A DNA stretch of 39,932 nucleotides from positions 1 to 39,932 of the forward strand of contig BDIP01000036.1 in NCBI GenBank assembly GCA_003568945.1. Reading direction: 5' to 3'. Below, one piece after another: positions 4,801 through 29,533 of the stretch; the first letter of the stretch is position 1; every line of letters starts with the position of its first letter. Origin of the DNA: Kipferlia bialata (Eukaryota). The notes beneath the pieces are model-generated. The model did no database searches and had not been told where the DNA came from. It was given only the letters and a program-made list of their open reading frames with translations. A program made the translations under genes and the position numbers.

Positions 4801-6841
4801 CACCCCGGGACACACCTCTCCAGCATGTCCACAAACTGAGAGGACGCTCTGCCATCAAGAGAGACAGACTCGGGGGTGGTCTCCTAATATTAATGGGTAT
4901 GAGTATATGACTATCTAGTGGGAGAGAGAGAGACACGGCCATCGAGGGATACATACTTGACGGTGGTCTCCTGATGGTTGAGACAGAAGTAATGGCATTG
5001 TAGAGCGTATATAGGTACAACATATGTACAATAGACAGGGTAATCTAGGGAGACAGACTCGGGGGTCTCCTATACAATGAGTCATTAGATATACTGGTAC
5101 ATATAAGTGAATCACACACACTATAAATACAGGTGCATGATACCTATGACACCAACACCCACAAAACAGTATATATACAAGTATATATACACAAAAAATG
5201 TACCCCCATACCTGTGCCTGATACCTCCTTGCCACTGCCTTCTTGTCATTCAACATGGGGATCACAGACTCACTCTGACATTAGTATAGAGAGTATAAGT
5301 AAGTAATAAGTACGATACATCAAACTAGAATGTATAGAGATAGGTATGTCATTCAACATGAGGATCACATACTCACTCTGAAGGGTTAGGGTATGTCCCA
5401 AGAAAGAGAGAAGTCCAATTATGACATCTTCTAGTGAATAGTAGTTGCGCAGAGTACTTCCGACTTAGAGTGTCAGTGCCTCACCCTGACGAGCATACAT
5501 GTCTCTAGGTTACTGGCAGCTATCAGGACCTCCAGGGCCAGGGCGTGGTTGTAGGCTGGGGTCAGGTATAACTGTATAGTGTGATAATGGTTAGTGCGTG
5601 GTTGAAGGCTAGTTAGAGGAATACGCGTGGTAACACTTAACGGTTAGTGTTATGAATGATACTCACAGTCTGTGCCTGGTCCCTCCCCCATTGTGATGTA
5701 CTGCTGGGTGGTCTGCACGGTGGCTGGGTCAAGGCCTGGGGTGAGTGAACGATTTTGTATTCTTTTGTATTGTGGCGACTACTGATTCCAAGATGAGACA
5801 CGGAAATATATTGAGAATGGCCCCGAGACTGACTGGAGACAGGACAGGAGTTGTGATTAGAATGAATGATAATCCTATATCTCACATTACTTTGACGTTC
5901 AACAATAGAACAACAGTACCTGGCAGATCTAGCAGTGTGCTCCCCTGGCCGTGCATGGCAGTGTCACCTGGGGTTAAGAAGGATATATACTATTTCATAC
6001 ATGATGCTAGAGAGAAATGCGAGTCATGTGCCTCCTATCTATACCTGCCCCTCTCTCCCTTGTCTGCCTTGGCAGGTGGGGCATGTTGTCCAGGCACTCC
6101 TGCACCTGCAGCCTGGGTTACTACCGATCACTAGACATATAGCACACACTGATACTACTGGTGTATTCATACTAATAGTTGATACATACGAATACCGACT
6201 CACCTGACTGCCTCGTTGATCTCCTCCACCTCCTCAGGGACATCCTGAGGTGAGACATATATCAAAAAATATTATGAAAGGAGGAATATTGTCCAGGCAG
6301 TGAGATATCGTTTAACTATTGTACAGGAATAGACGTAATAATGGTAGAGGTCTATCTCATAGACATATCCCCCTCACCTCCTCCTCCTCCCCTGGTCCCT
6401 CAGAGACCTCGAGGTCCTCGGGGGTCAGCATCTGGGGTAAGGTAGAGAGGAACACAACACACACGTCAGCCGACCACAATAGCGATTGTGTACCCATGTG
6501 CCCTCCCACCTTGATGTTGGAGCCCAGTTCCTCCTCTTCACTCTCCTCCTCCTCTTCCTCTGCCTCCTCCTCTGACACATCATCTATCCAGTGGGGGTCA
6601 TCCCCAACAGGGGTCTGGATTAGCGTATTGTATAAACAGAGAGAGAGAGAGGGAGAGAGAGGAACATCATCTATCCAGTGGGGATTGTCGCCAACGGGGT
6701 CTAGGGCAAGCGTAATATATATACGTAGGGTAAGTGTAATATATACATATATATATATATAGAGAGAGAGAGGGAGAGAGAGAGATAGATCGAGTCTATC
6801 CAGTGGGGGTCATCGCCAACAGGGGCCTAGGGTAAGTGTAT

Positions 6842-6878
<37 letters not shown>

Positions 6879-9482
6879 TATGATCCTGTCCAGTGGGGGT
6901 CGTCACCAACAGGGGTCTAGGGTTAATGTCTACTATATGTATATATGACCTCACACACATATAGGCATTGCCCTACCTCCTCCTCCCCTGCCTGCTCCTG
7001 TGCCACTATCCTGACAATGTCCAGTCTATCACCCATCTTCCTAGGATTAGAGTATTATACTGGTGAATATATTAGAGCGAATAATTAATCTATATATGGT
7101 AAATAATGTCGATTAGAGTCACATAGTATACATGGTTGAATTCAGAGACACTGATGGAATAGATATTGAATGACGTAGAGTGTGGGGTATGTATATATGT
7201 TGAGTATATACCTAGCCTTCTCGTGATTATCCCCATATTGCATATTGTATACATGGTATGGTATAAGGTATTTCATATTATGCGTTACAGATACGCACAC
7301 CTCGCCATCTCGTGCTTGGGGGGTCTAGGGATTCTCTGATCCGGCTGTGCTACTCTCAACCATATATATATATACATATATATATGTATGTATATATATT
7401 ATACGTATCAACATCTATACCTCGCCATCTCGTGCTTGGGAGGCCTAGGTGTTAGGCCATATCGGGACAGAGACCACAGCACATCCAGGACTGGGGGTGG
7501 GTTCGGAGGCATATGATGATAATTCAGATCCCTAAGCGAATAATAACACATGCCACATATACATCCTATCAACAATATGTATAAACACACACATACATAC
7601 AAAGACTCACCCAGGTCATCCAGGTCCCTCAGCTTGAACTGACTCAGCCACTGGTCTGGCTGGTCTAGCCACTGGAACTCGGCCTGGGTTTACACTCAAC
7701 TAAGATACAAATAGGAACACATTATTAGTATTTATCATATCAGAGTCTATCAGGCACAACCACATACCTCTGGGGACACCCCACTAGCCCCACTGGTCTG
7801 GCCCCCAAGGGTACCTGCCCCATGCTGTCTGGGGGGTGAGGGGTATATGAATACATATGTGTACATACATACATGAATATATATGGTACCAGAGCATACA
7901 ATATTATGAATTGACTCCCACCTGTTTCTGAGCCAGAACACATATGCGTTGTACCCGGCTATGCTGTCAGACCGGGTGCACAGGGCATATCTGGGGTGGG
8001 ACTGTATGGATAGTGATGCAATTGAGAGTGTGATTACATTAAGCTTGAATGATGGAGCACAATTGTTGTATATGACACATGTCTTTAGTCGTGTATGAGT
8101 AACCTTGGACCGTGGTTTACGGAACACACATCTCCATTCTCATACCTCCTGAGTGCCCTGAGGCTTGTGGGTGCCACTGTCTGGGGGGTCTTGATAGGAC
8201 TGCCCCTGGGGGGTGAGAGGGAGCATTAGTAGTGGTTATATTGATGACAAAACACACGAGAAAGACACGGTTCATGTAGAGACTCTGTACCCTACCTAGA
8301 TGCCAGTGCTGCCAGTATGACTGCCTCCTGGGGGATGCCTAGGGGGGTGAGGCAGAGAGAAGTGTATACTCGGTATAATGGAAATACACTGATAATTCTC
8401 TGGATACACGCCTAGGGGGTTAGGGAGAGAGTAGTAACTATAGCTACAATGTAAACACACTGATACACACTGGATAAACACCTACGCATAGTCCCAGGTA
8501 CACCAAGTACACTCTGATACACAATGGTAGTTCTTCCCAAGTATATAATGTACCCACCTAGGCATAGTCCCAGATACACCATGAGACTGCCAATAATACA
8601 ATTAAAAGATATGCATTACTATAATACATTCACACCTAGGCATAGTCCCAGATACACCATGAGACTGCCAGATAGGGACAGAGGCAGGTGTGTGGCCAGG
8701 GTGCCCAGGGGTGTACGGGTGTAGGTGTCACCTAGGGCCTTGATGAAGCCTGGGGGTGGGAAGGCAGAATATACTCTACATTCACACATATCTCACTATG
8801 TCATGAGGATACTAACAGTACACATATATATGATCCACGTATATATAATTATTACTATACCCACCCATGTTGTTGAGCATGATGACTGCATTCCTCAGGC
8901 TGTTGAGACTGGGTCTGTCCGGCACATGCTGAAGAAGGTCGAGGGGGTCGGTGCCTGAGGTCAGGACAGTGCCTGGTAATCCACTGTATGTTTACTCATT
9001 CCATATGGCATATAATGCTAACAGCTTGTTCCCACATGTACACCCACCTGTCCTGAGGTTGAGTGTCCTGAGGATGGTCTCTGTGAGTGACACCCTCTGG
9101 ATCTCCGGGACAGGGCGCTGGTGCATGGCAGAGTGGAAGGTGACCTAGGAGTTAGACAGGGTACGTAGCAGGAAAATGATTGACAAACTGGTGTACTATA
9201 TCTCTGAAGTGAATTAATATATATGTATAGTGACTGTACCTGTGGCACCAGCCTGACACACTCAGCATACATGCATATCTTCAACGTATATATTTCCTAT
9301 ATAATACTCAGCCTGATTACACACAGTTCATACGGATTCTGGTGCAGAGACCAAACTAATATGAAGTGTTTAAAACATAGTACAACCCTACCAACCAACG
9401 CACCTGTGGCACCAGCCTGACACACACTGCGGGTCCCATCCTGCCCACCCGGCCAGACCTCTGTCGGCAGGCATCCTGATAC

Positions 9483-9532
<50 letters not shown>

Positions 9533-12500
9533 AATATGAAATGGTAGCAGTTCATACCTGCGACGCATAGACTGTGACCAGCTCATCTATCTTGGTGGAC
9601 TCGTTGTATCTGAGCTCGTTGACCACACATGTGTCTATGCTGTACAGGACAGCGGGTAGGGTGATGGAGGACTCAGCGATGTTGGTGGCTAGCACGACCT
9701 AACGGTAAGAACACATATAACCCGGCAAGCGGTAGGAAACGTGCGCTACCAAAAGTCTCATATCATGTATGCACCTTGAATGCCCCGTCCTGGGGTCTCT
9801 CCAGTGCACGGGTCTGCTCTGGAGGTCAGTGTCAAAGTCATTACGTATAGACTCCATCTATGTGTAAAATAACGTATGTGTAAAATAACGTACGTGTAAA
9901 ATAACGTATGTGTAAAATACCGTATGTGTAAAATAACGTAATATATCCATATACACCTGCCGGTGGCACTGAGGAGTGCAGGATGCATATGTCAAACAGA
10001 CGGGCAGGGACGTATCTCGCGTTTCTGCGCCTCTGGTAGCCCCTGGGGGTGAGAGGGGAGAATATCAAGTCTCGTACAAACCTATAGACACATAGTAGAT
10101 CAACAATATGTACCTCAGTATGAACCCCTCTGTGTCTTCCAGCATCGCCTGTATGCCATGGATCTGGGCAAGGCCCGGCAGGAACACAATGCAGCTTGGG
10201 GTGAGAGAGTAACCTGTTTCTACCAGATTCCAAGTATAAATATGTTTTATCATACCCGAAGTGCTTGTCCAGCAGTCTGTGCATCTGTCTCCTGGTGACA
10301 CAGGGGAGGGGGACCTATTGGTGACATGGTATGCATGATATGGATTTATACGCTTCAGAGTATCATCGGGGAGAGGGACCAGGGGGGAGAACGGCAACGT
10401 ATATATATACAATTAACTGAGTGACATATCCCATACATGCATACTTCTCTCTGCACCTTGACTATAAATACATATGCATACACTCTTTACATCTATACAT
10501 GGGTGAGTATACATATCCTGTACCTGCCTCCTCTGCATCTTGAATATATATATACATACAATATATACTATACTATATACATACATATCCCATACCTGCC
10601 TCCTCTGCATCTTGACCAGCATGGACACTAGAATACATGTATACTATATAATATATACTATACCATATACATATATATATATATCCCATACCTGCCTCCT
10701 CTGCATCTTGACCAGCATGGACACAAGCATCCGAAGGGCAGCAGATGTCACCTGGGGTTAGACATGAATTGGAGTATGATGCTCTGATCCATATAACGCT
10801 ATGTACGTATAAATATACCTGAGTTGGCTGCTGCATGTTGCCAAGGGGTGCATTGGGGTATGTGTTGTTCTTGGGTGCACTGTCTATGGCATAGGGGGCA
10901 TAGTGGTGGCCACGGAAGGTACAGGGACGCCTGGGTGAGATGGAGGTGGATACTAACAGGAATGTACATACTCTTGTCAATTAAAGGAATATGGAGAGTA
11001 ATGAGTGAGATACCCTATAACTATATCCACTCACTTTGGGAAGTGGTTGTAGAGCTCCGCGCACTCGTCTGTGTCCAGATAGACCATCCTGACAGGGTGC
11101 ATCTGTTGAGAGATACTCACAGTGGGGAGGGAGTCCTGCACAGCGTGGTCACCACCCTTAGGGTCAGAGAGGGGTAAAACACCGCGTAATAATATGTATG
11201 TGTTACGTACCCTGAACCCTGCAGGCTGTGTGGCGTTGCTTGGTGCATAAAGTCTAGCCAGGGAGTCCTTGGGAGGGGTGGCAGACATCAGTACAACCCT
11301 GGGGGGTGAGGAATAACCCCAGGATTATAGACCATACACATACTAAGACTATTAGTCACTCATAATTCTTACGGGTAGTGAGACTGTACAGCACCTGAGT
11401 GTGGGCATGACTGAGAGTAGCAGCTTGAGCAGGGCCAGACACAGATCGGTCTCAATACCCCTCTCATGGACCTGGGGTAAGGCAATAGTCCGCGTAAAAA
11501 TCACAACTTCACAGAGCAGATATGTATATGAATATATGTATTTAGTACACCTCATCCACCACCACAATGTCAAAGGGCTCACCTCTACCTCTCTCTCTAT
11601 ATCTATCTATATATACATATCATGTATATATATACACACATATGTATACCTCATCCACCAATACATACACACACACACATACACACACATATATATATAT
11701 ATACACTCTATACCTCATCCACCACTACAATGTCAAATGGCTCATCCGCTGTGGAGGTGGCACTGGTGGAGCCCTCGCCTGGGGGTGAGCTGCATACTGT
11801 AACACTGCTAATATATGGCATACCTAGCAGTGCTATGGGGACAGTGCCGAGGACAGGTAGTTCTGCATAGATAGATACATCAAATACCCTCTATATACTA
11901 TAATAACACACTGTATACCTAATGGGGCCCTAGGTGAGAGAGCTGAGGACAGATAGTTCTGCAGCATCCCGCATGTCATGAAGGTGATACAGGTGGAGGG
12001 GCCACGCTTCTTGTGCTGACCGATGTGGTAGCCAACGGTCTCGCCAACCTGGCGTGAGGTGGAGAGAATACATATAAGGCACACATAAATGAATAGAAAG
12101 AAGTATTATAGTAATAATATATATAATATTATCCAATTCACACAATATGGAGAGTGAGGGAGAGATAGAGGGCAGTATACAATACCTGGCACCCTATCTG
12201 CTCTGCCACTCTGTTGGCCAAGAGGACAGCAGCCAGACGCCTCTGCTGGGCTACGAGGATACGGGCCTGGGGTGATATATAGGAATACATGTATATATAT
12301 ACTACAATTTATTCTTTGATATTTTGAAGATACACCATCAGGTGTATACTCACCTTGTTCTGGGATGCATCGAGCAGGTACACTGGCACTTGGGTACTCT
12401 TGCCTGTGTCAGTATCAGTGTCGGTATCTGAGAATAGTACTTAGGTACTAGGCCCTAGTATCAGTATCCCTTGCCTGACCCAGTCACCCCACTGATCAGA

Positions 12501-15500
12501 CACACCCTGCTGCCAGCCACGGTCCGCAGGATCTGAGTATGAATAGGTGTATATACAGACATATAGATATACATACTATATGTATACTATACATATACAC
12601 TGATCAGACACACCCTGCTGCCAGCCACGGTCTGCAGGATTTGGGGGTGAGTGTATGTATATATATATAGAGAGAGAGAACGTATATACTGGTGATCTAA
12701 CAACCCCCATACCTCGAGTCTGTGCTGTGCGATGGGCAGTCTCTCAGCGGCATATCGGGCCTGACAGGGTGAGTGGAACACAACGAGATATAGAGATAAA
12801 TATATAGATAACGGAAGAGACAACATACCTGAATAGGATTCGAAATTAACATGTTAAACACCTGTATACATAAATGTATAACCCACCTCCTTGACCCTCT
12901 TTATGCACTCTTCCACTGCTGCTGTCAAGGGTACTCTATCCCCAGACAAGGCACGCACGGCAAGGCCTGGGGGGTGAATGATAGTGGTAACTAGTATAAT
13001 ATAAAACACAATACTAATATATACTATATGTATACACTCCAGAGCACGCATATCATGACCCAGGCGATAGTGTACTTTGTACCCCACTACTCAGATATAT
13101 ACGAGTACCCCCGTACCCATGTCACTGGTTGTGCTTGGTGCATCGTGTAGCTGTGTGGTTGTGCCCACCCTGACCCAGGGACACTGGGCACCCGAGGCCC
13201 TGGGGTCACTCTGAGTATATATATGTATAAGTAATCACTTAATGATATAATCAGATACCCTGTTAACTAGTATTGCCATGCACCCACCTGACGAAAGGGT
13301 TATTGTCACTGGGCACTCTGACATAGACCACCACAAACACAAGCATGTAGGGCTGGGGGTGAGTATGATATGGATGCGGAGAATACTACATAGCCACTGA
13401 CTCTCACTGCTACATAGGCATGTCTTCTCTATCACCCTGCCACTCTTCCAGTAGCAATATCAGCGTCATAACAGATTATAGATATTGACATCGGTATCCT
13501 CCCTCACCTTCCTGCCACTCTTCCTGAGTCCCTCTAGCTCTGCTGTCTCTGCGGCACTCCTGCCAATGACCATCTTGGAGGAGGGAGGGGTGGCTGGGGG
13601 TCAGGGGTGTGCAGACACTAATAGTGAATCAGTATAGTATATGTATTGATACGATAATAGATGTCACCATACCCAGTGGCACCAAGTGGTACTGGATGGT
13701 GTTGGGTGGCAGCTTGGGCAGGAAGGAGAACATCACACGGCCCAGGACCTGGGGGTCAGAGCTCTAATTACGCCGAGGTATAATAAATAAATAAATTAAA
13801 AAAAAGAAACACCTATATATTGAGTGATGATATAGATAGATACATAATCAGTATCTACAGCTGTACCCACCTGTCCGACCAAGTCTCTCTCGTGGGTGGA
13901 CAGGAACACACCTGGAGATGAATATAGGGATAGGTAAATACAGTATACACCAGTAATACATATGTATAAGAAGATGGTCTCTCTCGTGGGTGGACAGGAA
14001 CACCCAGGGCGTAGGGTGCATGAGAGTATAGTGCAAATGGAAGGGAAAGCAACCACAGTAAGACAGACAATACTAGGCGTGTGTACCTGTTGCCCTCATT
14101 GTACTGTCATTCACTCCATAGAGCAGTACCCCACCGGCAGTGTTGACAAAGGAGGACAGGGTGCGGCTGGAGGGTAAGACAACATCAATGTATATCACTG
14201 TATTGCATATACTAGTATATATATATGAACCTGATATCATAGGCTAAGTCCTTCTCCACGTTCTGTATGGGCTCGTCCCTCCTCCTCATCTCCTTGAACT
14301 CCACAGAGGGGGACTCCTGGAGGGGGATCTGGGGTTAGAACTGAATGAGACATATATGAGGGTATAACCATGTGATATCATGTACATTGAACTCTATGGA
14401 CTCTTGGAGAGGGATCTGATTGTGAGAGAAACATTCATGTACTGTATACAACTGAGCATCCTCTAAAATAGATATATATATTGAATTCACTACATATACT
14501 AATATGAAATGAAATATGAATGGATATATCCAAGTAATCCCACCTCTGAGTCCAGATAGAGAGTCTTCTCTCCAGACAATATTGACCTGGGGGTGAGGGG
14601 TAGGGGGGATAGGTGGTTGTAGGATAGAGAGTATAGTACTAATATATTAAGACAAGTATACCTCAGTGCCTCGAGCATGTCTGGTGTGGCCGAGTATGAT
14701 ATACACACATATATATATAGGTATATATCATATTATAGACATATTACTATTATATACCTGAGTGCCTCGTGCATGTCTGGTGTGGCCGAGCAGGATGTCT
14801 TCTATCACACAAATATATATTAAACATATATGTATATATCTATCACTAAGCACATCTATCACTAATGTATACACTATACACATATACTTACCTCAGCGCC
14901 TCGTGCATGTCTGGTGTGGCCGAGCAGGATGGCTCCAGGTACAGACCATCACTCGAGATGGACTGAGGTGGGAGGGAGAGAAATAGGGGGGGGAGATATA
15001 TATATGTCAAAGGCAGATGGACTGGGGTGAGAGAAATAATATATATAGAGAGAGTGGGGTGATGAAGAGAGAGGCAGGGAGAGATATATATGTCAACTTG
15101 ACATGGACTGGGGTGAGAGAGGGGAAGGAAAACAAAGAGAGAGAGAGAGAGGGAAAGAGAAAGCTGGCTAACTCAATCCAACACCAACTTTCAGAGAATA
15201 CCAATCACACCAGTCCAGTCAACAACAATACGTATACATACATTCATATAATACCCCATGTATATATTCACCCAGGATAGGTACACATTCAGTCACAGAA
15301 CACTCCCTATATACACATGTCACACGGACACCAATGCTAACCTCACCACTACCTGTCTACTTGTTCCACGACACTCGGAGACCAGTCATTAACACACACA
15401 CCCAGACCACAAACCATGTATACTTATGTACGTATATATATGTGAGTGTATGTATAGGTATAACCACCTTGCCTATCTGGGGTATGTGTCTGAACAGTCC

Positions 15501-15578
15501 CTGCAGCTCCAGAGGCTGGGCAGTGTCAACCCCATCTACTTGGGCACTGGACACACTGGTACCACCCTCTCCCGTCAT
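1886..15578 (-). CDS. Schlafen/AlbA_2 domain fused to a DExH-box (DEAH/RHA family) RNA helicase; ~50 short exons
   Basis: Hand-spliced exons give: start MTGEGGTSVSS (ATG 15578); AlbA_2 motifs ESPSVEFKE (exon 14231-14328), SSFVNTAGGVLLYGVND (14087-14166), WVRVGTTT (13117-13199); LPIAQHR; Walker A GVTGSGKSTQVP (~12380-12495); Ia QQRRLAA; VGYHIG; II VVDE|VHER (~11714/11470); III MSAT; IV VFLPG; ILHSS; V ATNIAESSITLP (~9660-9700); VI QRSGRVGR (~9440-9470); PEIQR, TPLG..LP and SD (WH/HA2 region); YLHPNS (OB-fold); ends ...GFDPLNME* (TGA 1886-1888). Confidence 0.9.
3627..4055 (-). repeat. Five copies of an exon 3' end plus donor (GCLMVAAVTR|GT) separated by AT-rich spacers
   Basis: Copies at ~3627-3660, 3706-3740, 3820-3855 and 3932-3965, plus the true exon end at ~4023-4055. 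Confidence 0.9.
6580..6920 (-). repeat. Four copies of acceptor plus exon 5' end (AG|TPVGDDPHW) separated by (CT)n/(AT)n
   Basis: Plus-strand motif TCCAGTGGGG..CCAACAGGGG recurs at ~6587, 6674, 6799 and 6889. Confidence 0.9.
9859..9940 (+). repeat. Intronic 16-bp minisatellite (TATGTGTAAAATAACG) x5
   Basis: Five near-perfect tandem units are directly visible. Confidence 0.9.
13117..14328 (-). other. Schlafen/AlbA_2 (putative RNase) domain-encoding exons within the helicase gene
   Basis: Phase-compatible exons give IPLQESPSVEFKEMRRRDEPIQNVEKDLAYDISRTLSSFVNTAGGVLLYGVNDSTMRATGVFLSTHERDLVGQVLGRVMFSFLPKLP...YMLVFVVVYVRVPSDNNPFVRASGAQCPWVRVGTTT. This matches the E-x4-EFK, (S/A)F(A/V)NT-x-GG-x-L-x-x-GV-x-D and terminal (Y/W)xRxG(S/T)xT pattern of AlbA_2/Schlafen core domains. 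Confidence 0.88.
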
Positions 15579-15814: not shown

Positions 15815-16087
15815 ATGCCGCCTAGACCCAGTCCCAAGCAGGGCAAGACAGGTGGGGGTGGGGGTGGTCGTTATTACTTGCTATACTGGAGGATAGAGCG
15901 GTTTTCACGTCTTCTATACTTGTGATGAGCCGGTGTGGGCTCAGGAGTGTGTATATGAGTGTTGGAATTAGTGAATGTGACATATTCAGTCTATTGAGTA
16001 CTCTATTCCATATGCCAGAATCATATCCTCTACAGGGCCAGTCTTTTCTTATGTCTTCTATTGATACCACTGGTTCCCTACTTCGTC

Positions 16088-16121
<34 letters not shown>

Positions 16122-19100
16122 CCCTCTCTCTCTCTTTCTCCCCCCCCCCCCCCTCCCTCTCTCTGTCTGAACACCCTTAATGGCAGGTGTGTCCACTGTG
16201 TCCAGCGCCTCCTTCTTCGGGTCCCAGCACGAGATGTACCTACCTAGGTATATATATGTATATATACACTATGTATATACATTAGTGGATTGGTCCTAGG
16301 TACATATGATGTGTACCTACCTTGGTACATATATGCATAGCATGAAGTATACGTAGGATGATGACACATGAGCCCTTATTCTTACAACCAGGCTGGTCAT
16401 TGACCTTGACCTCATCGACAGTGGCCTTGGGGTGCAGGAGTCACACGAGAGTCCACTCCAGGCATGCACGCTGTATATACATCTATACATCGATTCCCCT
16501 CACTGTATTGCTATACACTAACAATCCTCTTTGTAAATGATTATAGTATACGAATATGATATAAATATACCCTTACCCTTAGCACACAATCTGGGGCGCC
16601 ATGAATCTCAGCAGCAGAGACGAGCAGATTGCAGCATTTGTCAGAATGGCCATCGTGCTCTCATGTGGTAAGTCACCATCGCTTTAGTACAGTTGCGTAA
16701 GTATATATATATTGCTTACAGGTAGGTCTCCCTGCGGCTCTTGCCCTGCCTCTCGAGGAGCCCTCAGAGGTGGAGGGATCCCACATTGACATGAACGTGT
16801 CACCCTTCAAGGTATCTCTTTCTCTCTCTATACATATATTTATACATTCCGGCCCTAAATCTTAGCTATATGTCTATTCTGTGAACTCACTGCAGGTTTT
16901 CCCAAGTGGAGACATCAAGTCCTCCATCACATCCAAGTTCACCAGTGAGAAGACACTCTTCAGCAGAGTACTGATGCACATACCAGGTAACTCCTAGTAT
17001 ATTACTGGATACAATTTCTAACTCGATGCGTCGTATCTTACTCGATAGGTGACATGCTGCACAAGTCCCCTCTCCTCAGGGCCACTGTGACGTCCTTCAA
17101 CAAGGGACTCCTGCCCCCAGTCTTCTCAAGGTACCCTACCTTCCCTCCGTCTGCACTCTCTCTCCGTCTACACCCTTAATGCCAGGGCTGCTCTAGGCCA
17201 GATGTTCCTCGCACTTGGGGAGAAGTTCACTCTCCCCCAACCAGATGCCTCACTTCTCACAATGAAGCTGGCACAGCACCTGGTACGTCTCTCTCTGTCT
17301 CTTTCTCTTTCCCTGTCCATTCTTTGCCACACATAAACTCACTTCCAGTCAGTTGTCGTGACAAGCCGCAGTGCCCCTGTGGCTCGTATGTCACACGGTC
17401 TGAACCTCGCATACCCGAGCAGGTATCGCAAGCAATTATCTGCACTCTCTTACATACATGTAGTCCTATTCGATCCTTACAGTCTAGGTTTGGACCCCTT
17501 CTCCAGGCATCCACCAGTGTGTTCAAGTTCCTCGAGAGCAAGTTCGGAAGGCGCATCCCAGCAGCAGCATTCAAGGTACTATATCGCGTAGTTTCTCTGT
17601 CTAGTCGCGTAATATACATCTGACACCCAGGTCTTCTTTGCCAGAGTGGCAGTGCTCTTTGACTGCATTGTGGAGGAGTACCCTCGGTGAGTAATACACG
17701 TACATAATACCTTAGGTTATGCAATGTAGAGACATCTGTCGCACTCTTACATTATATAGTATTCTTACGCGATTTATATATAGTTCTCTTTGACTGCATT
17801 GTGGAGGAGTACCCTCGGTGAGTAATGCACACTTACCACCATTTATGTACGCACCTACACACATATTGTTGCAATTGAGTGATCCATTCTGACCCCAGCC
17901 ACTCTCCCCAGTTTGACCAGTTCACCTTCTGGGCCATTGCAGCCATGGAGAGGTACTGACATACCTACTATCAGTCTGACAGGCTTCCATTCATATGATA
18001 TATGTTTTATTATATATATTATTATATGATCTCTCATACATTATTATATATAATTATATACTATTATATATTATTATACAGTATAATAATGATGTGTTCT
18101 AACACCTAGGTTCTGGGCCAAGGCCAAGGCTGACAGGACAGAGTTTGCAGCGACCAAGAAGAGTCTCAAGAAGCATGAGGTATATATACGCTCCACATCA
18201 TATACACGAGCAATACAATTTTCCATAATTACGATATGCTTGCCTTACCTTCAGACTGCCCTGCTCGCAGACCTACCCCCTGATGCAGCTGAGAGGACAG
18301 CACTGCAGAGGAGCATTGCTAACATCAAGGTTAGTATATTTACGCATAGAGTATGCTCTAGGTCTTGCACATTACAGACATGTTGCATTGCAATTCTATA
18401 TATTGTATATACAATCCGTCTCTCTCACCCCAGGAGAGCATCGACATCGTGTCCCCCAGGGCAGACACCAACGAGGAGGAGATGAAGTCACTCGTGGTCA
18501 GGTACGCCATTCATATCACATTACCGCGTAATAATATGTTGTATTCCCTCACCCCCAGAGGAGGCAACCTCGCCGCTGTCTACCTCTTCTCTGAGGAGAT
18601 GTGGACCCACAGGCGCAAGGATACCTTCAAGAAGCTGATTGCAGAGGTATGTGGCTACCTCCTACACGATATAGTTTCTTACACGATACCTAACCACTAG
18701 ACCTACCACTCCATTGGTGTAGAGAAGCCCCCCGACTTCTCCATCTCTGTCTCCCTCTTCCTCTCTGGCCTGGCCTCTGGACAGTACCACTTCATGTTCC
18801 CAGAGAAGCAGAGCCTCAACCCATTCCTCTGGCTCTATGCAGGTACCACACACTCTCTCTCTCTCAACCAGTCACGTTACATTTCTGCGAAATTTTCACC
18901 TCTTAGCTCGCTTATCCCTTGGCGCTCTTCCAGCTGTTGACACTGCTGTTTTCCATCATGTGTCAGTATCATACTCCCTCTAATCCTCTCTTCTCTCTAA
19001 TTGTACTAACCCTAGGTGCCCTTCCTGCCGTTGACACCGCTGTCCTATCGTGTGTCAGGGCATGCATCGGTGCCATCATGTACCCACCTGGCATACCATT

Positions 19101-20273
19101 CATGGACAATACTAACGGAGTGGAGGTGGGTATATATAGATAGATATATATATATGGGTGTATATATAGTGTATATATACTACCATTGTATATATTAGTG
19201 TGTATATACACCCCTGGCATACCATTCGTGGACAATACCAATGGGGTGGAGGTGGGTATACACTAACGATTGTGTATCTTCCATTATATCTCTCTGTATT
19301 CACCCTAAATATATAAGTTGCCACCTGTGTGCAGATGTGGAAAGACGGCCTTCTCTCTCTCTGTGTCTGTATCTCTCCTTCTACACCCTTAACATACAGG
19401 TTGCCACCTGTGTTCAGATGTGGAGGGATGGCCTACTTGAGTCACTCAAGGCAGACAACACCAGAGAGAACAACCAGAAGCTGCTAGGTACCTATTACAA
19501 TATGATTAATTATAGTGAACTAAACTATCTGATTGTGCCAATGACTTCTCACCTGCAGCTGTAGCCCGTAAGCAGTGCCCCATCACCGTTGTCAACATCG
19601 ACCACCCTGGCAGTGTGTTCTTCCCAATTGCAGTCAGGGTATGTACTCTCTCTCTCTCTCTACTCTTATCGCAGTCAGGGTATGTACAAACACTCTAAAC
19701 GGCATTCACATAAGTATACTATATCATGAGTCTCTAACCCCTAGGCCCTTGAGAATGGCCACCCCCTCATCTTCCTCTAGTTCTCTCTCTCCTTCTACCT
19801 AAGTGCCACTATTCTCGATAGCTAAACTGAACTTCTAACTTTGTAGGCCCTTGAGAACGGCCACCCCCTCATCTTCCTATCACATGGTGTGGGTACAGAT
19901 GAGGCATGGACCTTCTTCAGTCACGTCATCAACCTGGTGGTGGGCAGGAGCACAAGGTATCGCGTAATAACTATAATCGCGTAGTTACTAGTATTCCTTA
20001 CGTTCTTCTTACACGATAGGCGCGGCCAGGTCCTGCGCTTCAACGACGGCCGCTACCGTGTGAGAGTCAAGACTCCCCTGCACAACATGAGGATATACAT
20101 CGCCATGCCCGCAGCATACTACAGGGTGAGACATAGACTGTGTAGAGAATCTCTAGTATAAATCACTCCTATTCTCCGTTCATCTATATCCCTCTTTGCT
20201 TACACCCAGGCCAGAAACACCTTCCTGGACTGCCGCCCCATGAAGCCAACGCTGACACTACAGGTACACTCTG

Positions 20274-20313
<40 letters not shown>

Positions 20314-22502
20314 ACTCACTGGTCCCATCTGTAACTGTAACTTCTATACTCATCTGTCTATACCCAAACTCTCTCCCTCTACACCCTCAATACCAGATTC
20401 TGGATGTGTTCCAGAGGGCATGCCCGGAGGGAGATATTGGGCCATTCCAGGAGGTATACGATATATCTCCACACAGCTCAGTTGTTTCATACTATAGGAC
20501 TACATACAATATGAATCTTTATATATTTTTTAGTATTGCTATGTTACGCGATACTGACCTCCTAGGCTGCCCTCAAGGAGTCTGCTGCCCACAAGGCCAG
20601 GCAGCAGTACTGGCATGTGCTGAGAGACATGTCCAGACAGCTCATCACACTCAAGCCGGGGTCAGGTAATGCTACATATATCCATCTCTTCATTTGTCAG
20701 GTACTGACCTGCATATACTAGCTAATACTCATATAGTACTGTATATATATGTGTGTAATCTCTATTCTGAGAGACATGAGTAAACAACTCATCACTCTCA
20801 AGCCGGGGTCAGTATAACGACATCTATCTCCCTCTTAATTTCGGACTCTGAGTGCTATATCTCTATATTCACATAGTGCTTAACCCATCAGCTTCTGCCG
20901 ATGTCATCAGATCAGGGAGTGCCCTGCTAGACCTGGCACAGGAGGTGCAGACCACTCAGGCAGCATGTGCCAACCAGTGGGTCAGGTATGGGGATATTTG
21001 TATATTTCTATACATACATTCCCATAAACTTTATGTGTGTGAATTTATCTCTCACCCCCAGGCGTGGCATTGACTATGGCCTAGCCATGCCCATCAGAAT
21101 GGTGGAGAGCCACTTCCGCTCATTCCCTGCTCCCATTCTCAGAGGTATGTGCCTGCCCTTCTCTCACTACTTATCTTCCCCTATAACTGAAGTATATACA
21201 ATAGAATTATATATATTCTTTTGTTGTGCCGATGTACTCTTAATGCAGGCGCTGCCACTGTTGAGAAGCAGATGGTCTTCCTCACCGAGCGTGTGAGTGA
21301 GTTTGTCCTGGACAAGGGTGAGGCGCTATGGGACATGCCGAATACTATCAACTAGACAATGTATACATTGATGCGAGTCTTTGACACTCTTCCCTAGGCT
21401 TCACCAACTCATCATATATATACATATATGATATATGGGTGAGACGCTATGGTTCTCCCTATACTCATACTATTTTGAGGCTAGTCTGGGATACTCACCT
21501 CTTAGGTTTCACCAACCTGACCCCTCCCTCCGTGGCACAGCTTTTCTCAGACTCACTCGGCCGTCTGGTACGGGTTGCCTAGATGCATGTACTCTCTCAC
21601 AATATCATCACTTTTAACGATTTGTTCATTCATCATTTACCAATGAGATGGTATAAATTAACTGGTGGTAGTATATATCACGATTGATGTCAGGTTGCCT
21701 CCACTGTAGCACCCAACGTGCTGTTTGAGATGGGCCAGTTCCAGGTGTATTTACATACGTCTCTCTCTCCCTTGCTCTAATTATATACTATATATATTTC
21801 AACAGTCTCTCAATACATTGCGTCTCATGCCCCACTTGTCCTTACACTGCAGGTCCTGATGCTCCTCTACAACCTCATCAACCTGCTGATGCGTGGTGAC
21901 TTTGACACTGCTACCTGTGACGCAGCCATGTATGCAATGTCACACAACTGGAAGGCGGTGAAGGGGCGCGTAGATACCAAGTACCACGAGGTATCGCGTA
22001 TTTTTACTACACTTGGAAAACTACGCGGTGTTACTCACCCCCAGTCTCTGCTACCTGTGCTCAAGACTAGAGGCACACCCCTCTCCAAGCACGCTCTGCT
22101 GAAGAGTGCCTTTGAGAGACTCAGCTGGCTGGAGGTACATTGACCCTATACTATTCCATAATATACTATGCTATCCTTCTACCCGCTAGTCCCCCGCCCC
22201 TGTCTTCCACGGTGTATGTACTGCTATATATACATATATGTTTATGACTGTATGTATACTATCTATATATATATATATATAGTATTTACCTCAGTCCTCT
22301 GCCCCTGTCTTCCACGGTGTCTGTGCCTCTATCCTGGAGTGTGATGAGGCATTTGCAGAGGCTATTCTGTTGGTCAACAACATTGATGCAGGTAATGCCC
22401 ACACTCTCTCTCGCTCTCTAAGTGAGTGTGTATACCCCTTATGCCAGGCACCGAGCTTCTGTCCTATGTCCTTGGCAAAAACTGCAAGAGACCTTCCATC
22501 TA

Positions 22503-22553
<51 letters not shown>

Positions 22554-25500
22554 ACATCTATATGTGGATACCCCTTACACAGGCACCGAGCTTCTGTCCT
22601 ATATCATTGGCAACACCCCCAAGAGAGAGTACATCATGGGGCAGAACCACCACTCCAAGGACAAGCTCAGGTACTTTCTCTCTCTTTCTCTCTCTCTCTG
22701 TTTCTCTCTGCACCCTTAATCTCAGGCTGCCTGAGATGCTCGGCACTGTTCTCTGTGACGGTACACTGGCCAAGAACTACACAGTCCTCTGCTGCCTCAA
22801 CCCTGCATCGGCTCTGGTACGTCTCCATTTCTCTTTGTCTCTTTCTTTTCGACACGATTGCGTGATACTAGGTCTCGATGGGTGCCTGGATGCGTGCCTT
22901 TAGCTCTGCCAAGTACATCCAGATGGGCCAGGACAATATCGCAGACTTCAGAGAGAAGGTATCACATTCACATCTTACGCGATACTCTTAGAGCTACACG
23001 GTCATATAGTACCTAACCCCCAGAACATGGCTGCTGCACAGCAGCTCAAGATGCCTAGGATGAGAGTGCAGGTACGATTGAAAGAACATCACTCAGATTC
23101 TTTTGTGTCTGTAGGTTACTAGTGTATATATATGACGGGTTCTTCTGAACTCTAGGTGCACGACATGGTCAACACCCTCCGTTCCTTCTCTAAGGCCGTT
23201 GATATACTAATTTTCATTATATATAGTATCATGCTGCTAATGCTAGGTGCACGACATGGTCAACACTCTACGCTCCTCCTCTAAGGCCGTGGCCATCGGT
23301 GTCATGTGTGCACCTGTCGATGCATTCCCATTCCTGCATGTCACAATGGTGCTGTCCCAAGCAGGTTCGTTGTCTATTATTCTCTCTTCTATACCTAAGA
23401 ACTCCTTCACATCCATTATTATCCTTTTCTTCTCTATATGTCTGCCCTCACCTCCAGGGATGCAGCCTGTCTACGGCCTCTTCAACCACATGCCCCCAGA
23501 GAGAGTCGCAGTGGTGCTATGGGTGAGTCAATACCTGTTATCCCCAATGTGGTCTCCTGCATTGTTATATATATTATATAACATGCTAACATATAACGTG
23601 TTATAGGTACTATATATTTGACTCTCGTAAAGTGTATGGTAGTTCTGACCCTCAGGAAACCATCAAGGAGACTACGTCCATCTCATAATCTCTCCTTATG
23701 CTCTGTCTATTAGTTTTGTTCATTTCTGATACTGATGATACTGATACTGATATATCTATTAGTTTTGTTCATCACTGACCCTTTAGGACACCATCAAGGA
23801 GAAGAAGCCCACAGACAGGGTGTTCCACCAGCCAGTCAAGATGGTGGTCATCATGCCGAGGTACAGAGCTATTCCTCTAAATACCCATGAGGCATTGAAT
23901 TGAATCTTAGTCTAACCTCCAGACATGCCGAAAAGCAGAACCCTGACCTCGCACAGTTCCTGGTGGGCAAGAGCATCTACCAGATGTGTCTGCGGTACGT
24001 ACCCACTATATTCTCATGTAATATGTGATGTATATGTTGCCTTGGCTTTCCTATTCTTACTTCAGTGTGCAGCGTGACCCTGTCCGTGCAGCATACACCA
24101 AGATACCAGGGCCAGGTATAACCAACAATCTCTCTCTCTCTCCCTCTACACCCTTTAACCATCAGCCTGGATGGGTCTCTCCCCCACCCCCCACTTCCTG
24201 ACCCCCACCCCTGGTATCCCTGCCTTTGTCTCCCCTGCCTTCAGTGCAGCCATGCAGAGGATGTATGCAGGTACTGTCTCTCTCTCTCTCTCTGTCGCTA
24301 CACCCTTTACCTCAGGTGTTGCCCTGACCTTTGCCCAGAAGCAATTCTCTCTCTCTCTCTCTCTCTGTCGCTACACCCCTAACCTCAGGTGTTGCGCTGA
24401 CCTTTGCCCAGAAGCAGTACCACCCATCATTCCAGAGAAGAGGAGCAGGTATGATTCTCTCTCTCTCTCTCCCTACACCCTTAATGTTAATATAGTCAAC
24501 TGACTCATTGTGTATGTATCTCTCTTTCTCTCTCCACCCTTATTCCAGGCATGGAGTGGTTCATCAGTGTGACTATATGCGTGAGACAGGTCTCCACCTT
24601 GGCAAGGTATGTGTTCTCTCTCTCCCTCTACACCCTTTCTCTCTCCCCCTACAACCTTAATCCCAGGTTCATGGTGCACTATGGCCAGGATGCCTCTCAC
24701 ATCTACAGTAGACCACCCCTGCAGAGGGTGACTGCTAAGAGCAGGGTATGTTCTCTCTCCATCTACACAGTGTTAGTTGTGTCATGACCCAGACCAGGGC
24801 GTACATTTACTACTACTTCTCTTTCTCTCTCCCCCCCCTCTCTGCACCCATAACGTCAGTTGGCCCGTGGACCAGCCAGAGGAGGGCGCAGCAGGGACAG
24901 CGACGTCAGGTATATTTACGTTATAGTATATTTTATATAGTATATTCAGACATAAGCATTCTTCTACTATTCTTAAGTCTACTTTTACTTTGGTTTGCTG
25001 GTCATCTCCCTGTCCAATGACCTCATTGAGAAGTATATCCAGATATTCTCTGTCTTCTATTATCTCTAACATACTTATACTTAGGTTCGCCGGTCATCTC
25101 TCCCTCTCCAATGACCTCATTGAGAAGTGCCAGCAGAACCCAGCCACGGACATGTTCAGGACATGGTCGTGGCCTAGTCAGTTCCAGTCAGGTACGCGAA
25201 ACTACAAATATTTGTATATACCTCAGTCTCTCTCTCTCTGACCATTAGGCGTTGTCTCCCCCCTCAACAACATGGCCATCCTGAGATACCTCAGACTGCT
25301 GACTGACACTATCTGTTACGAGGGACCCAGTTCATACCTCACACAAGTGCAGGTACATACAATCACAGTCTCTCTCCTTCTCTCTCTAGACACATAATTC
25401 TTATCTCACACAAGTGGAGTTACTCTCTCTTCCCCTCTGTCTCGCTCTAGACCATCATTTCTTAAGAATCAAGTTGACTTGCCTACTGATTCTCTCTTTC

Positions 25501-26598
25501 CCTTTCTCTGTGTCTCTCTCTTATATATCAGGTTGAGCTGCCCTGTCACGCTGGGCACAGACAAACACTTCTTTCTTTTTCTCTCTCTCTAGACCCTCAT
25601 TTTCTTATCCTTCAGGTTGAGCTCCCCTGCCACGCTGGACACCTCCTGGACTCATACGACCTGCTCAAGGTAGGACATTGATCATCTATTGTGTCTCTTT
25701 CTTTTCATAGATTCTGAAATTGTTAATCCCTAGGTCTCCGATGGCCATGGCACCCAAAGGACAGGCCTCACAGCCAAGACTGGAGTATCGATGGCATCCA
25801 GACAGCAGAGCAGGTGTATAGATCTGTTTCTCTCTCTCTCTCTCCTTCTTCACCCTTAATTCCCAGGTCCAAGTATGGAGAGTCCATGCACTCTGCCAGA
25901 TCAGGCATGTCCAACAGCAGCTACATGCAGCCAGCAGGTATTGTATATACATAGTATATACTATATACATGTATATATTAGTAAATACACATGTATATAT
26001 ATATATATGTCTGGCATGTCCAACAGCAGCTACATGCAGCCAGCAGGTATTGTATGTGTATGTATGCACTTAACCCTCTCAATCCGGGCTTCTTTTAACG
26101 TACTATCTATATTTACTCTATGCCTTCTCATTCCAGGCTCTGTCATTGCTGGTTCTGAGGCAGGGTCACAGGCCACATCCCACGTGGGTACGTACATAGA
26201 CTATGTACTGGACAGGGATCGAACCCGCGTCTTCTCCATCTCCATACACAGTGTCCTCGACTAGAATCGAACGCACGACCTCTCAACTTATACTAAGACC
26301 CTCTCACCTACCAGGACGTAGGAACCACGGCAGAGGCCAGACACATCGAGTGGCACAGCAGCTTACACAGGTTAGTTATATTCGTTGATACTTTCTATTC
26401 TATTAAGGATAGCTCTAATTGTAGGCCCTGGAGTGCATTGCTGACACTGATCTGTGTCATTGTATATATATACAATTGTATATATTCATACATTGGGATA
26501 TTCCTCTTGTGTCTTACTATCAGGCCCTGGAGTGCATTGCAGACACTGACAATGTGCGCATTGCCCTGCTATCCCCAGATGCACCACTAGTGGAGAAG

Positions 26599-26632
<34 letters not shown>

Positions 26633-29533
26633 TCTTTAGAATGTGGTCATTAGATGGAATTGAACCCTCCCCCACCCTCACTTCAGCTGAGTGTCCCTGC
26701 CCAGCTTCCAGATATTCACTCTCTCTCTCTCTCTCCCTCTCTACTGTGGTCTATGTCTATATAGTAATATGAACCCTTACTCTAGTTGAGTGTCCCTGCC
26801 CAGCTCCCAGACATCAGGGGAATGCTCTCCTCGCACAACAAGGTCTTTGCACAGGTTCGTTGGTCACCCTCCCTCTCTGTCTTCTTCTTCTTCTCTCTCT
26901 CTCTCTCTCTCTTTACACCCTTAATACCAGGACCCCGCTGCGTGTTTGGCCAGCGACTTCTTCGGTGTTGTGCCTCTGCAGTACAGTGTCGACAGACCCA
27001 GGTATCCCTCTCTCTCTCTCCCTTATACATATCCATACTCTCATATATGGGTGCCTCACCCTCAGCATCCTGGAGGACATTCGTGACCCAGGCATCTCTC
27101 TCTCTCCCTATACATTTACACACATATAATCACACATGTATATATCTATAGTTTTCTTACTCTCAGCATCCTGGAGGACATTCGTGACCTCCTTGAGTCA
27201 CTAACTGCACCATCAGACGCCAGAAAGGTATGATCTCAATCATATGTATCCTCTCTCTCTTTCCTCGACATACTATACGCAAAGCGTGATACCGTTTGTG
27301 TACGTTAATAACATGAATGTGTACATGTATACTTAGTCTCACTTTAGCGTGCCATTGCAGCCTCCATGGCCAAGAGGGGTGTCAGATCTCTCTTTCTCTT
27401 TCTCTCTCTCTCTTTCCCCCTCTTCTCCTAACCACAGCGTGCCATTGCAGCCTCGAAGGCCAAGAGGGGTGGGAGGTCTAGGTCCAGAGACGATGAGAGA
27501 TACATGGACGTGGAGATGGATATGGACAGTCACAACCTGATAGGTACTGTACATATATATATATGTATATACATATGTATTTACACATACATATACATAT
27601 GTATTCGTTCTTGTATGTATATGTATATATATATATATATTGACAGATACATGAATGTGGAGATGGACATGGACAGTCACAACTTGATAGGTACGATGGG
27701 TAACAATGATTCTCTCTCTCTTTCTCTGTTCATCGTATCTCTGCTCTACCCCTATAACCCCAGAGATTATCCACTCCTTGACCTCCTGTATTACTGTATC
27801 TATACACATATATGAATATATGTAGATATGTATTGTATACAACGATAACCCCAGAGATTGTCCACTCCTTGACATCCTGTCCAAAGGTCGTGGCAGCGGC
27901 ACACAAGGTGTGTAGGATGTATAAATATGTACATTGTACTTTCCCAGTACCATGCGACTTTTACTAAACCTTAACACCAGATCCTTGCCTCTAACCCCCT
28001 TGCAGACTGGTATAATATGTATACATATATATTAATGTCTATATATTTATAACTGCATTTGTATTGTTCTAGCCTTCTAGTCTTACCCTTAGGTTCTGGC
28101 CTCCAACCCCCTTGCCGACTGGTGTGAGGACCCATGCGATATCAGTGGTCTGTCACAGGTACTATTGGTATCCTAAAGAGGATTCAAATATATATGAGAT
28201 ACATTCTATGTAAATACTATTTGAAAACCTTCGTTTAACCTCTCAGGAATAATGATTATACATGTACTACTAAGTATATCAGTGGTCTGTCGCAGGTACT
28301 AATACATATCCAGGATATATTTGCATACTCTAATTGTCTAAAATGCCAACTGAACACCAATATGTACACATATAACTAACCCTTACAGGATGCCAAGAGG
28401 GCCCTTCTGTTCAGTCTCAAATGTATATATGTGTGTGTGTGTGTGTATTCCATTCATTGTTGAATGTATTATATTATGAAGTGGACTATGATGTACTATC
28501 TGTTTACCATCAGGATGCCAAGAGGGCCCTTCTGTTCAGCTCGGCTCTCTCTCTCTCCCTCTACACCCTTAATTCCAGGATGCCAAGAGGGCCCTTCTGT
28601 TCAGCCTCATGGTCGAGTTTGCAAACAACGAGGGAATCAGACAGGTATGTACATTCTCTGTAGCTACACTGGCACCTCTGTCTGTCTACCTCTATCACCC
28701 TAATCTCCAGGCCGACTGCCACTTTGTCTGCTCCATGACCCCCCCCTCTCTCTCTCTCCTTCTACACCCTTATTCCAGGCTGACTGTCACTTTGTCTGCT
28801 CCATGACCCCTCCTCTCTCTATGGACAGGTCAAGAGACGCACCTGCAGTACAGCTGAAGGCAAAGCTGGTGAGTATTGCTTATATATATTACTATATATA
28901 TGTGGGTAATCTGACATCTAGGTCAACTTCCGCCTGTCAGCTGACATGACCACCCCTGTGTCTGCCTCCTACCACCTCCCCCCTGCCTGTGCCACTGTGT
29001 ACATACACTGCGACAGTGACAAGAGGAGATCACACGGGAGGTAACGCACCCTCACACATACTATGCATTTGCATATCATACAACCAAAATACTCTGTTGT
29101 CTGTTTACCTATTTACAATGCTATATCTAACTCCAGGGGTGCCATCCGTGAGGTCAGCAACGTGTCCAGTGAGAGTGAGCTGTCTCTGCTACAGGATCAG
29201 GTACATATTTATATGTATGTAGTGGGAATCGTACCTCATGACTCACCCCCAGCAGTCGAGTGGCATGATTAGGGTCTCCCAGCTTAAGGGTGGGGTACCT
29301 GGTCTAGGCCACATTGGGGAGCAGATGGCCAACGTCCCAGGTACTCTTTCATATAGAATAGTAAAGTATACCTTGATGTATATCATACACTCTGTACTCT
29401 TTATATGTTATGCATGTACTCTATGTTCACCCCAGTCATTCTTGGCAGCAGGCGTCTGGGCAACGTCTCTCTCAGAGACAAGATTGGTGCAGACCACTGG
29501 ATTAGCATGGGAGCGCACTTTGACATCATGTAG
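15815..29533 (+). CDS. Highly divergent dynein-heavy-chain-like protein (degenerate AAA4, reduced stalk, AAA5, AAA6, C-terminal domain); ~70 short exons
   Basis: Hand-spliced peptides align in order with remembered dynein consensus: DEQIAAFVRMAIVLSCGLPAAL (AAA4 start), SFNKGLLPPVFS (cf. LNSGEVPNLF), KLAQHLSVVVTS (cf. VRKNLHVVLCMS), FTFWAIAAMERF plus coiled coil, EEMWT, GIPF...VQMWRDGL...ENN, ALENGHPLIF and GQVLRFNDG...MRIYI (AAA5), VLCCLNP...YIQMGQD (AAA6, cf. FILSPG..ISLGQGQ), and terminal NVPVILGSRR...ADHWISMGAHFDIM* (cf. CPVY...HWIxRGVAL; TAG 29531-29533). The first exons (from MPPRPSPK, ATG 15815) are less certain than those from ~16036 onward. Confidence 0.7.
16089..16168 (+). repeat. 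Poly-C / (CT)n pyrimidine tract in an intron
   Basis: C homopolymer runs and CT repeats lie between donor ~16073 and acceptor ~16186. Confidence 0.9.

Follow-up and report, generated by a model that had tools for sequence, protein, structure and literature searches.

Why should the introns of a gene carry copies of the ends of the exons beside them, in most cases with the splice site included? The question arises in a window of 39,932 nucleotides (nt) from Kipferlia bialata (the whole stretch of DNA analyzed, contig BDIP01000036.1), which contains KIPB_000318 (protein P0001) on the forward (+) strand and its neighbor KIPB_000317 (P0002) on the reverse (−) strand; one + exon is identical to part of the former and one − exon to part of the latter. 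A sequence-only reading had described such copies in KIPB_000318, a dynein-like gene, as polarized, mostly synonymous in their differences, and indicative of systematic intron growth. We find the copies in both genes, and they differ from their exons as alleles of a working gene would differ. With moderate confidence, we take them to be probable scars of recombination in which, between alleles that had strongly diverged, part of an exon and most of an intron would have been doubled.

Exon positions came from spliced mapping of the stored proteins, which gave 67 exons for P0001 and 57 for P0002 (15578-1886, −). Two further exons of P0002, a helicase, were added by hand at its Walker A motif via an inferred GC-AG intron, making 59, and the two genes together have 124 introns. 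In these two neighboring genes only, every exon was aligned locally against its two flanking introns. At a score of at least 24 there were 54 exon-end copies in 39 of the 124 introns, 26 in the + gene and 28 in the − gene; those in the + gene fall into 21 of the 52 introns within 17655-28810. Among 15,012 non-adjacent exon-intron pairs, 34 reached this score, so that about 0.6 would be expected among the 248 adjacent pairs. One extra match at the threshold, in a non-adjacent intron, was excluded from later counts. The exon part of a copy is 12 to 50 nt long, and copy and original lie 64 to 396 nt apart. The longest exact match between the two is 44 nt, and every copy lacks at least 12 nt of its exon. 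All 15 copies listed in the sequence-only reading are among the 54, each within a few bases of where it had been placed, and the changes quoted for them are correct (CTG/CTC, TGT/TGC, and GGG/GGA at 25532; GCC/GCT and TGC/TGT at 28711; V/I at 27764 and 27981). What does not hold is the idea that the pattern is particular to the dynein-like gene: it spans both genes and is wider than first described.

The copies are strongly polarized. All 29 upstream copies begin within 6 nt of the first base of the exon, and 24 of the 25 downstream copies stop no more than 3 nt from its last base. Weaker matches (scores of 18 to 23; n = 22) comprised 9 with the expected polarity, 1 with the opposite polarity, and 12 from mid-exon. 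The duplicates lie near the original in head-to-tail orientation and span the splice site; because duplication across a splice site has this geometry, the polarity needs no special cause. Each case reads as an intron, an exon end, and a second nearly complete intron. The intron pieces beside the copies have a median length of 72 nt, versus 84 nt for copy-free introns; the shortest is 25 nt, and 91 of 93 are at least 43 nt. No new intron has been created: none of the 54 copies could be exchanged into an exon through a GT-AG pair, and the one copy tested with reads is removed inside a single intron. Systematic growth of introns, as had been proposed, is apparent from the 36 of 45 introns of at least 150 nt that hold a copy; introns of that size account for 9,055 of the 17,536 intron bases.

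In the aligned cores (1,698 nt), copies and exons differ at 143 positions, of which 101 are synonymous and 42 nonsynonymous; with alignments forced to the exon edge, 110 of 169 differences are synonymous. Both the polarity and the synonymous bias noted earlier thus survive a systematic count. Synonymous divergence (dS) is 0.276 and nonsynonymous divergence (dN) is 0.034, giving a dN/dS of 0.12 (0.07 to 0.22 by bootstrap over exon ends). Limiting each exon end to a single copy gives 0.13, and the ratio does not differ between the two genes or between the two polarities. Because a dead copy from the same molecule cannot drop below a dN/dS of about 0.5, the copies diverged while coding; a binomial test against this neutral-copy floor of 0.5 gave p = 7e-13. 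Simulated neutral copies, subjected to the same detection, were 39 to 42% synonymous in their differences, with a maximum of 54% in 400 runs, versus the 71% observed. Such a bias is impossible from copying an exon in place and calls for a donor that had diverged as a working gene. The known paralogues were rejected as donors, having only 35 to 42% protein identity.

AG is kept in 22 of the 29 upstream copies and GT in 21 of the 25 downstream copies, so the earlier statement that the copies carry these sites is right for most and wrong for the remaining 11 of 54. From the sequence, this loss is above the expectation from a dN of 0.03 and hints at selection against decoys. Decoy acceptors look valid, as had been claimed: they score 8.8 bits versus 8.4 for real acceptors, 13 of the 22 equal or exceed the real site in strength, and the median of other intronic AGs is −1.9. 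In their flanks (−30 to −13), decoy and real acceptors have a similarity of 0.34 versus 0.28 for random introns (p = 0.14). Donor flanks keep more likeness (0.38 versus 0.28 at +10 to +30; p = 0.001), and 12 of the 54 pairs of intron pieces align above background. Acceptors that are strong while their flanks are mostly unalignable, together with coding-type divergence, argue that copy and flank diverged while they were a functioning exon-intron border in a homologous gene. The junctions lie at TA or CT dinucleotide tracts in 34 of 54 cases, against a background of 29% (p = 2e-7).

If decoys were used, 49 of the 54 resulting exons would exceed 142 nt, the length of the longest internal exon, and only 5 would stay in frame and stop-free; every copy bears one splice site at most. 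The signature of ratchet points, AG followed directly by GT (AG/GT), is present at only 3 of the 22 intact decoy acceptors and is not enriched, and exons start with GT in 8 of 25 cases versus 25 of 99 (p = 0.61). The suggestion that decoys serve recursive or alternative splicing finds no support in these counts or in the lack of exchangeable copies. Skipping of decoys, also part of the sequence-only reading, is borne out for the one decoy donor tested with reads (copy 17782..17817). Exon definition is a plausible account of decoy skipping, and the simplest; the reads show such skipping for this one donor decoy only.

Capture from diverged alleles would proceed as follows. Homology between the alleles would be limited to exons, of 41 to 142 nt. 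A broken end would invade the other allele within an exon and be extended past the splice site across most of the intron there; the copied end would fail to re-anneal in an unalignable intron, and alternative end joining would close the break at a TA or CT tract, leaving the intron plus the exon end doubled. In a two-step path to the same product, a plain duplication would be followed by unequal crossover with other alleles inside the copy; the data do not separate the two paths, and there is no gradient of differences along the copies. The survivors would be copies with one splice site absent and at least 40 nt from the real site, and the real short exon would likely still be chosen by exon definition. 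Nonsynonymous differences would represent decay after capture, and synonymous differences would be mostly old allelic ones. Homozygosity or haploidy would have come later, as donor alleles are absent from the strain in the stretch tested with reads. Fornicates are described as having no Ku-based nonhomologous end joining (NHEJ), no Rad51A, and two Dmc1 paralogues (PMC8516963), and Dmc1-type residues are reported to aid recombination of divergent, mismatched DNA (PMC6719624).

The alternative that survives best, which we nevertheless consider unlikely, is a single past hybridization or allopolyploidy: two subgenomes at a dS of about 0.28, homeologous exchange between them, and subsequent loss of one. 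The repair chemistry would be that of capture from diverged alleles, with one donor genome in place of a polymorphic population, and the dN/dS of 0.12, the unalignable but functional flanks, and the present homozygosity would all be covered without record diversity. The evidence for more than one donor is against it. In exon ends with several copies, the copies differ mutually at 16 of 70 third positions versus 10 of 140 other positions, and three synonymous states are found at each of four codons, whereas later decay would, by a rough estimate, account for fewer than one such third state. The four copies in the array at 3629..3962 differ mutually at synonymous third positions only, with three states at two codons; as they share a junction yet differ synonymously, they suggest that exchange took place repeatedly, and with several alleles, once the junction had formed. 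Third-position divergence is also overdispersed among copies, as it would be with several donors (chi-square = 76, 53 degrees of freedom, p = 0.02).

We regard it as improbable that the copies are an assembly artifact, in which a short-read assembler stitched the two haplotypes of a heterozygous diploid in series. The published K. bialata genome (124,912 introns, diploid by k-mer peaks) is described as a fragmented draft assembled with SPAdes from Illumina short reads (PMC5874029), and haplotype-like divergence is what such stitching would yield. The reads cover the junction question in 16170-18000, a region with 1 of the 54 copies and no decoy acceptor; the contigs of run X1 (Logan contigs) reach 17843. 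X1 possibly derives from the same sample as the window, and is to be taken as an independent assembly rather than an independent sample, from short reads only; its gap in cover from 17844 onward carries no weight either way. Nonetheless, an X1 contig (17666-17815) crosses the 17781/17782 junction with 0 differences at a depth of 483, its neighbors having depths of 433 and 487, and the bin over the repeated part has a depth of 857, about double. Single-copy depth and no second contig imply, within the limits of contigs, that copy 17782..17817 is on all chromosome copies and that there is no diverged haplotype there. X1 also holds 0.96 of 1,027 sampled words in 18500-28400; because 6.7% of these words span 22 junctions, at least part of those junctions are present in the reads. 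Two haplotypes, moreover, cannot yield three synonymous states, and the longest exact match, of 44 nt, also weighs against an artifact. Run X2, which was taken as RNA by guess (GT-AG joints and a word share of 0.21, with 0.23 expected from exons only, fit spliced RNA), joins 17685 to 17898, so that the real donor is used and copy 17782..17817 is removed.

Plain tandem duplication on the same molecule (by slippage or mediated by microhomology), followed by neutral decay amid fast-evolving introns, is very improbable as the whole explanation. It would account for the polarity, the intron-sized spacers, and the dinucleotide junctions, and a few near-perfect tandem units (e.g., 24271-24416) fit it. 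But it predicts a dN/dS of at least 0.5, and the observed value refutes it as sole cause. It also predicts AT-biased third-position change, and none is seen: synonymous changes are nearly symmetric (43 GC>AT and 34 AT>GC), whereas decay predicts 88% GC>AT (p = 4e-12), and the commoner codon is found in the copy about as often as in the exon (55 versus 43). Nonsynonymous changes are AT biased (25 versus 8); the direct contrast between the synonymous and nonsynonymous classes gave a p value of 0.056. A decoy old enough to have an unalignable flank should, in addition, have lost its exon identity and acceptor strength, yet both are retained. Plain duplication may still be the first step of capture from diverged alleles. 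An introner or transposon with target-site duplication was rejected, the divergence being of the coding type.

Least probable of all is that minor isoforms, whether through cassette, mutually exclusive, or recursive splicing, still have the copies translated and that selection on the protein keeps them synonymous, which would fit the synonymous bias, the strong decoy sites, and the 5 usable reading frames but is contradicted by the single splice site per copy, the 0 of 54 swap isoforms, the 11 copies without AG or GT, the lack of AG/GT enrichment, an RNA-type contig that skips the tested copy, and the annotated proteins P0001 and P0002, which skip every copy. Recursive, swap, and cassette splicing models were rejected on the AG/GT, GT-AG pairing, frame, and partial-copy evidence.

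Several observations weigh against capture from diverged alleles. No donor allele was seen, X1 showing neither other letters nor a second contig over exons in 16170-17843, although the species is described as diploid (PMC5874029), and no other K. bialata isolate was found in which to search for one. Flank divergence looks deeper than a dS of 0.28 suggests. Third-position differences are spread evenly along the copies (43/220 versus 41/213), with no crossover gradient, and divergence of the exon part is independent of intron-piece similarity (rho = −0.07). Visual inspection of junction microhomology was limited to two cases. For Schizophyllum commune a synonymous diversity of 0.20 has been reported (PMC4576712), and the value implied here, about 0.25, is higher still. 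Nothing here demonstrates sex in Kipferlia, the reads bear on one copy and on no decoy acceptor, and the counts rest on two genes.

A fuller picture is possible, and we offer it tentatively. Kipferlia would be cryptically sexual and hyperdiverse, with synonymous diversity near 0.25; its Dmc1-only, NHEJ-free repair would abort at intron borders; introns would grow by capturing splice-site-bearing pieces of alleles; one homozygous genome would hold thousands of fossil alleles; and the reduced spliceosome (87 of 174 proteins; PMC6679479) would ignore full-strength decoys in a third of introns. If this is true, intron growth would be a by-product of recombination between diverged alleles, driven neither by transposons nor by slippage, and introns would document extreme diversity and sex that is otherwise hidden. 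The sequence of a single genome would then be evidence that a free-living fornicate exchanges genes and is very diverse, a matter long debated for the Giardia lineage. The matched real and decoy splice sites would be a natural set for comparing exon and intron definition in a reduced spliceosome. The copies also mislead gene finders; the ab initio model used here took several of them as micro-exons.

Table 1. Host genes and copies of exon ends in the window (the position of the copied exon end is in parentheses; aa, amino acids).
Feature	Positions	Strand	Remarks
KIPB_000318 (P0001)	15815..29533	+	67 exons, 1,768 aa, degenerate dynein-heavy-chain-like; host gene
KIPB_000317 (P0002)	1886..15578	−	Schlafen/AlbA-DEAH helicase, 59 exons; 28 copies in 18/58 introns
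Copy of exon 11 3' end (exon 17631-17686)	17782..17817	+	With GT; DNA contig bridges at full depth; spliced out
Copy of exon 18 5' end (19016)	18922..18966	+	AG lost
Copy of exon 18 3' end (19125)	19204..19251	+	With GT
Copy of exon 19 5' end (19400)	19317..19354	+	AG lost
Copy of exon 21 5' end (19847)	19745..19776	+	With AG
Copy of exon 25 3' end (20665)	20767..20812	+	GT lost; TCC/AGT serine codon switch
Copy of exon 33 5' end (22295)	22190..22227	+	With AG
Copy of exon 34 5' end (22583)	22448..22491	+	With AG
Copy of exon 38 5' end (23247)	23156..23199	+	With AG
Copy of exon 40 5' end (23787)	23656..23671	+	With AG
Copy of exon 44 5' end (24389)	24316..24343	+	With AG; near-perfect 73-nt tandem unit, alignable intron parts
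Copy of exon 48 5' end (25085)	24993..25034	+	AG lost
Copy of exon 49 3' end (25352)	25398..25419	+	GT lost
Copy of exon 50 5' end (25616)	25532..25558	+	With AG
Copy of exon 52 3' end (25937)	26010..26046	+	With GT
Copy of exon 55 5' end (26524)	26425..26450	+	With AG
Copy of exon 56 5' end (26786)	26687..26715	+	With AG
Copy of exon 58 5' end (27167)	27066..27088	+	With AG; then copy of previous donor region, GT read as GC
Copy of exon 59 5' end (27438)	27348..27389	+	With AG
Copy of exon 59 3' end (27543)	27641..27690	+	With GT
Copy of exon 60 5' end (27855)	27764..27789	+	With AG
Copy of exon 61 5' end (28093)	27981..28011	+	With AG
Copy of exon 61 3' end (28158)	28276..28295	+	With GT
First copy of exon 62 5' end (28579)	28389..28419	+	With AG
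Second copy of exon 62 5' end (28579)	28514..28540	+	With AG; no difference in exon part; intron flank unalignable
Copy of exon 63 5' end (28779)	28711..28753	+	With AG
Array of four 29-nt copies of 3' end of exon ending at 4025	3629..3962	−	One shared junction
Three copies of 5' end of exon starting at 6614	6664..6916	−	Three synonymous states at one Gly codon

The name dynein-like is fair for KIPB_000318 if it is understood as a degenerate, partial member of the family, and in that sense the earlier label holds. Pfam and PDB scans of P0001 both gave no match. Its look-alikes in the Atlas (residues 90-720) are all dynein motor clusters, with a best score of 0.90, and a 4,938-aa paralogue, from residue 3138 onward, shares 37% identity with P0001 over the length of the latter. 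P0001 covers only the C-terminal third of that paralogue and so lacks the full-length layout of tail, AAA1-4, and stalk. DHC_N2 is found in paralogues of P0001, in one case above and in one below the cutoff, and the 4,938-aa paralogue has a DHC_N2 match; a profile match to axonemal DHC1 is weak (E = 0.0014) and falls within the tail region, outside P0001. P0003 and P0004 belong to a Kipferlia family of degenerate dynein heavy chains of 4,000 to 4,900 aa in which Pfam sees only DHC_N2. Within 15815-16186, the first intron of the P0001 gene has a long poly-C run near 16091-16150, and KIPB_000318 may be truncated, or the assembly joined, at this place. Run X2 has 9 splice joints in the gene, and a 121-nt skip in that run agrees with a GC-AG intron at 16462-16582 (+).

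KIPB_000317 is a fusion of a Schlafen/AlbA_2 domain (residues 80-160) with a DEAH-type helicase. No relative of the helicase was found among metagenome contigs, and both P0001 and P0002 are single-member clusters. A likely GC-AG intron at 12404-12474 (−) lies inside the helicase Walker A motif and has the same 7-nt word at each end; the exons on either side of it (12532-12475 and 12403-12354) are missing from the annotated P0002.

An acceptor module (CT tract, ACACCCTT, CAG) recurs in distant introns within 17155-28778 (+), with 26 to 38 nt alike, and occurs in 10 of the 66 introns of the + gene versus 3 of the 58 of the − gene; read-depth spikes suggest that it is common genome-wide. In the part of the self-comparison covered, distant introns were alike only in short acceptor stretches, which also counts against an introner or transposon. 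Elsewhere in the window there are a scaffold gap (N) at 30165-30396 with poly-G on its sides and, at 32113-36207 (+), a stop-free frame of 1,364 codons that is Ser/Thr rich and has a hydrophobic end, in intron-dense surroundings. The end of the window holds part of a third gene (−), in which 24 nt of an exon, either the whole or its end (39917-39894), are doubled 122 nt downstream at 39795-39772, with two synonymous differences and with AG and GT on both; the second has no obvious branch site.

Tandem genomic duplication across an intron-exon boundary has been described in the potato RdRp gene (Ma et al. 2016, PMC4974935), and the mechanism has been reviewed (PMC3443670). As in Kipferlia, the segment described as duplicated in potato consists of an intron end, an acceptor, and an exon start; there, however, a single event makes a new intron from identical copies, whereas in Kipferlia there is no new intron, about one-third of the introns of the two genes are affected, and the divergence is allele-like. 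Kipferlia thus shares the spanning geometry of boundary duplications and departs from them in origin, since only 12 of 54 pieces align and dN/dS is 0.12, which is not what copies of the same molecule would show. Internal gene duplication, in the account of Gao and Lynch from 2009, reportedly consists of frequent short within-gene duplications that copy splice signals and originate on the same molecule. The Kipferlia copies stand out by allele-like synonymous divergence and by unalignable functional flanks, which such duplications are not known to show. Recursive-splicing ratchet points and duplicated mutually exclusive exons also place extra splice sites or exon copies in introns; the Kipferlia copies are partial, have one site only, and show no AG/GT enrichment.

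In hyperdiverse S. commune, crossovers are reported to fall in exons (PMC4209137). There, as would be the case in Kipferlia, exons are islands of homology between very different alleles, and synonymous diversity is of a similar order, but ordinary crossovers are what has been described, whereas Kipferlia would have retained duplication scars in its introns. At human meiotic breaks, a switch from homologous recombination to polymerase theta-mediated end joining yields side-by-side duplications (Hinch et al. 2023, PMC7615360). Partial resynthesis, template switching, and breakpoints in tandem repeats would be points of likeness; the human insertions, as described, are rare and de novo, arise between near-identical homologues, have not accumulated, and are unlinked to exon-intron structure. 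In the open-access literature, as judged by titles and abstract openings, we found no description of pervasive exon-end copies with allele-like divergence, and the main text of the K. bialata genome paper (PMC5874029), by word search, contains neither "duplicat" nor "heterozyg." Single boundary duplications are known; what these two genes add is pervasive copies that have diverged like alleles.

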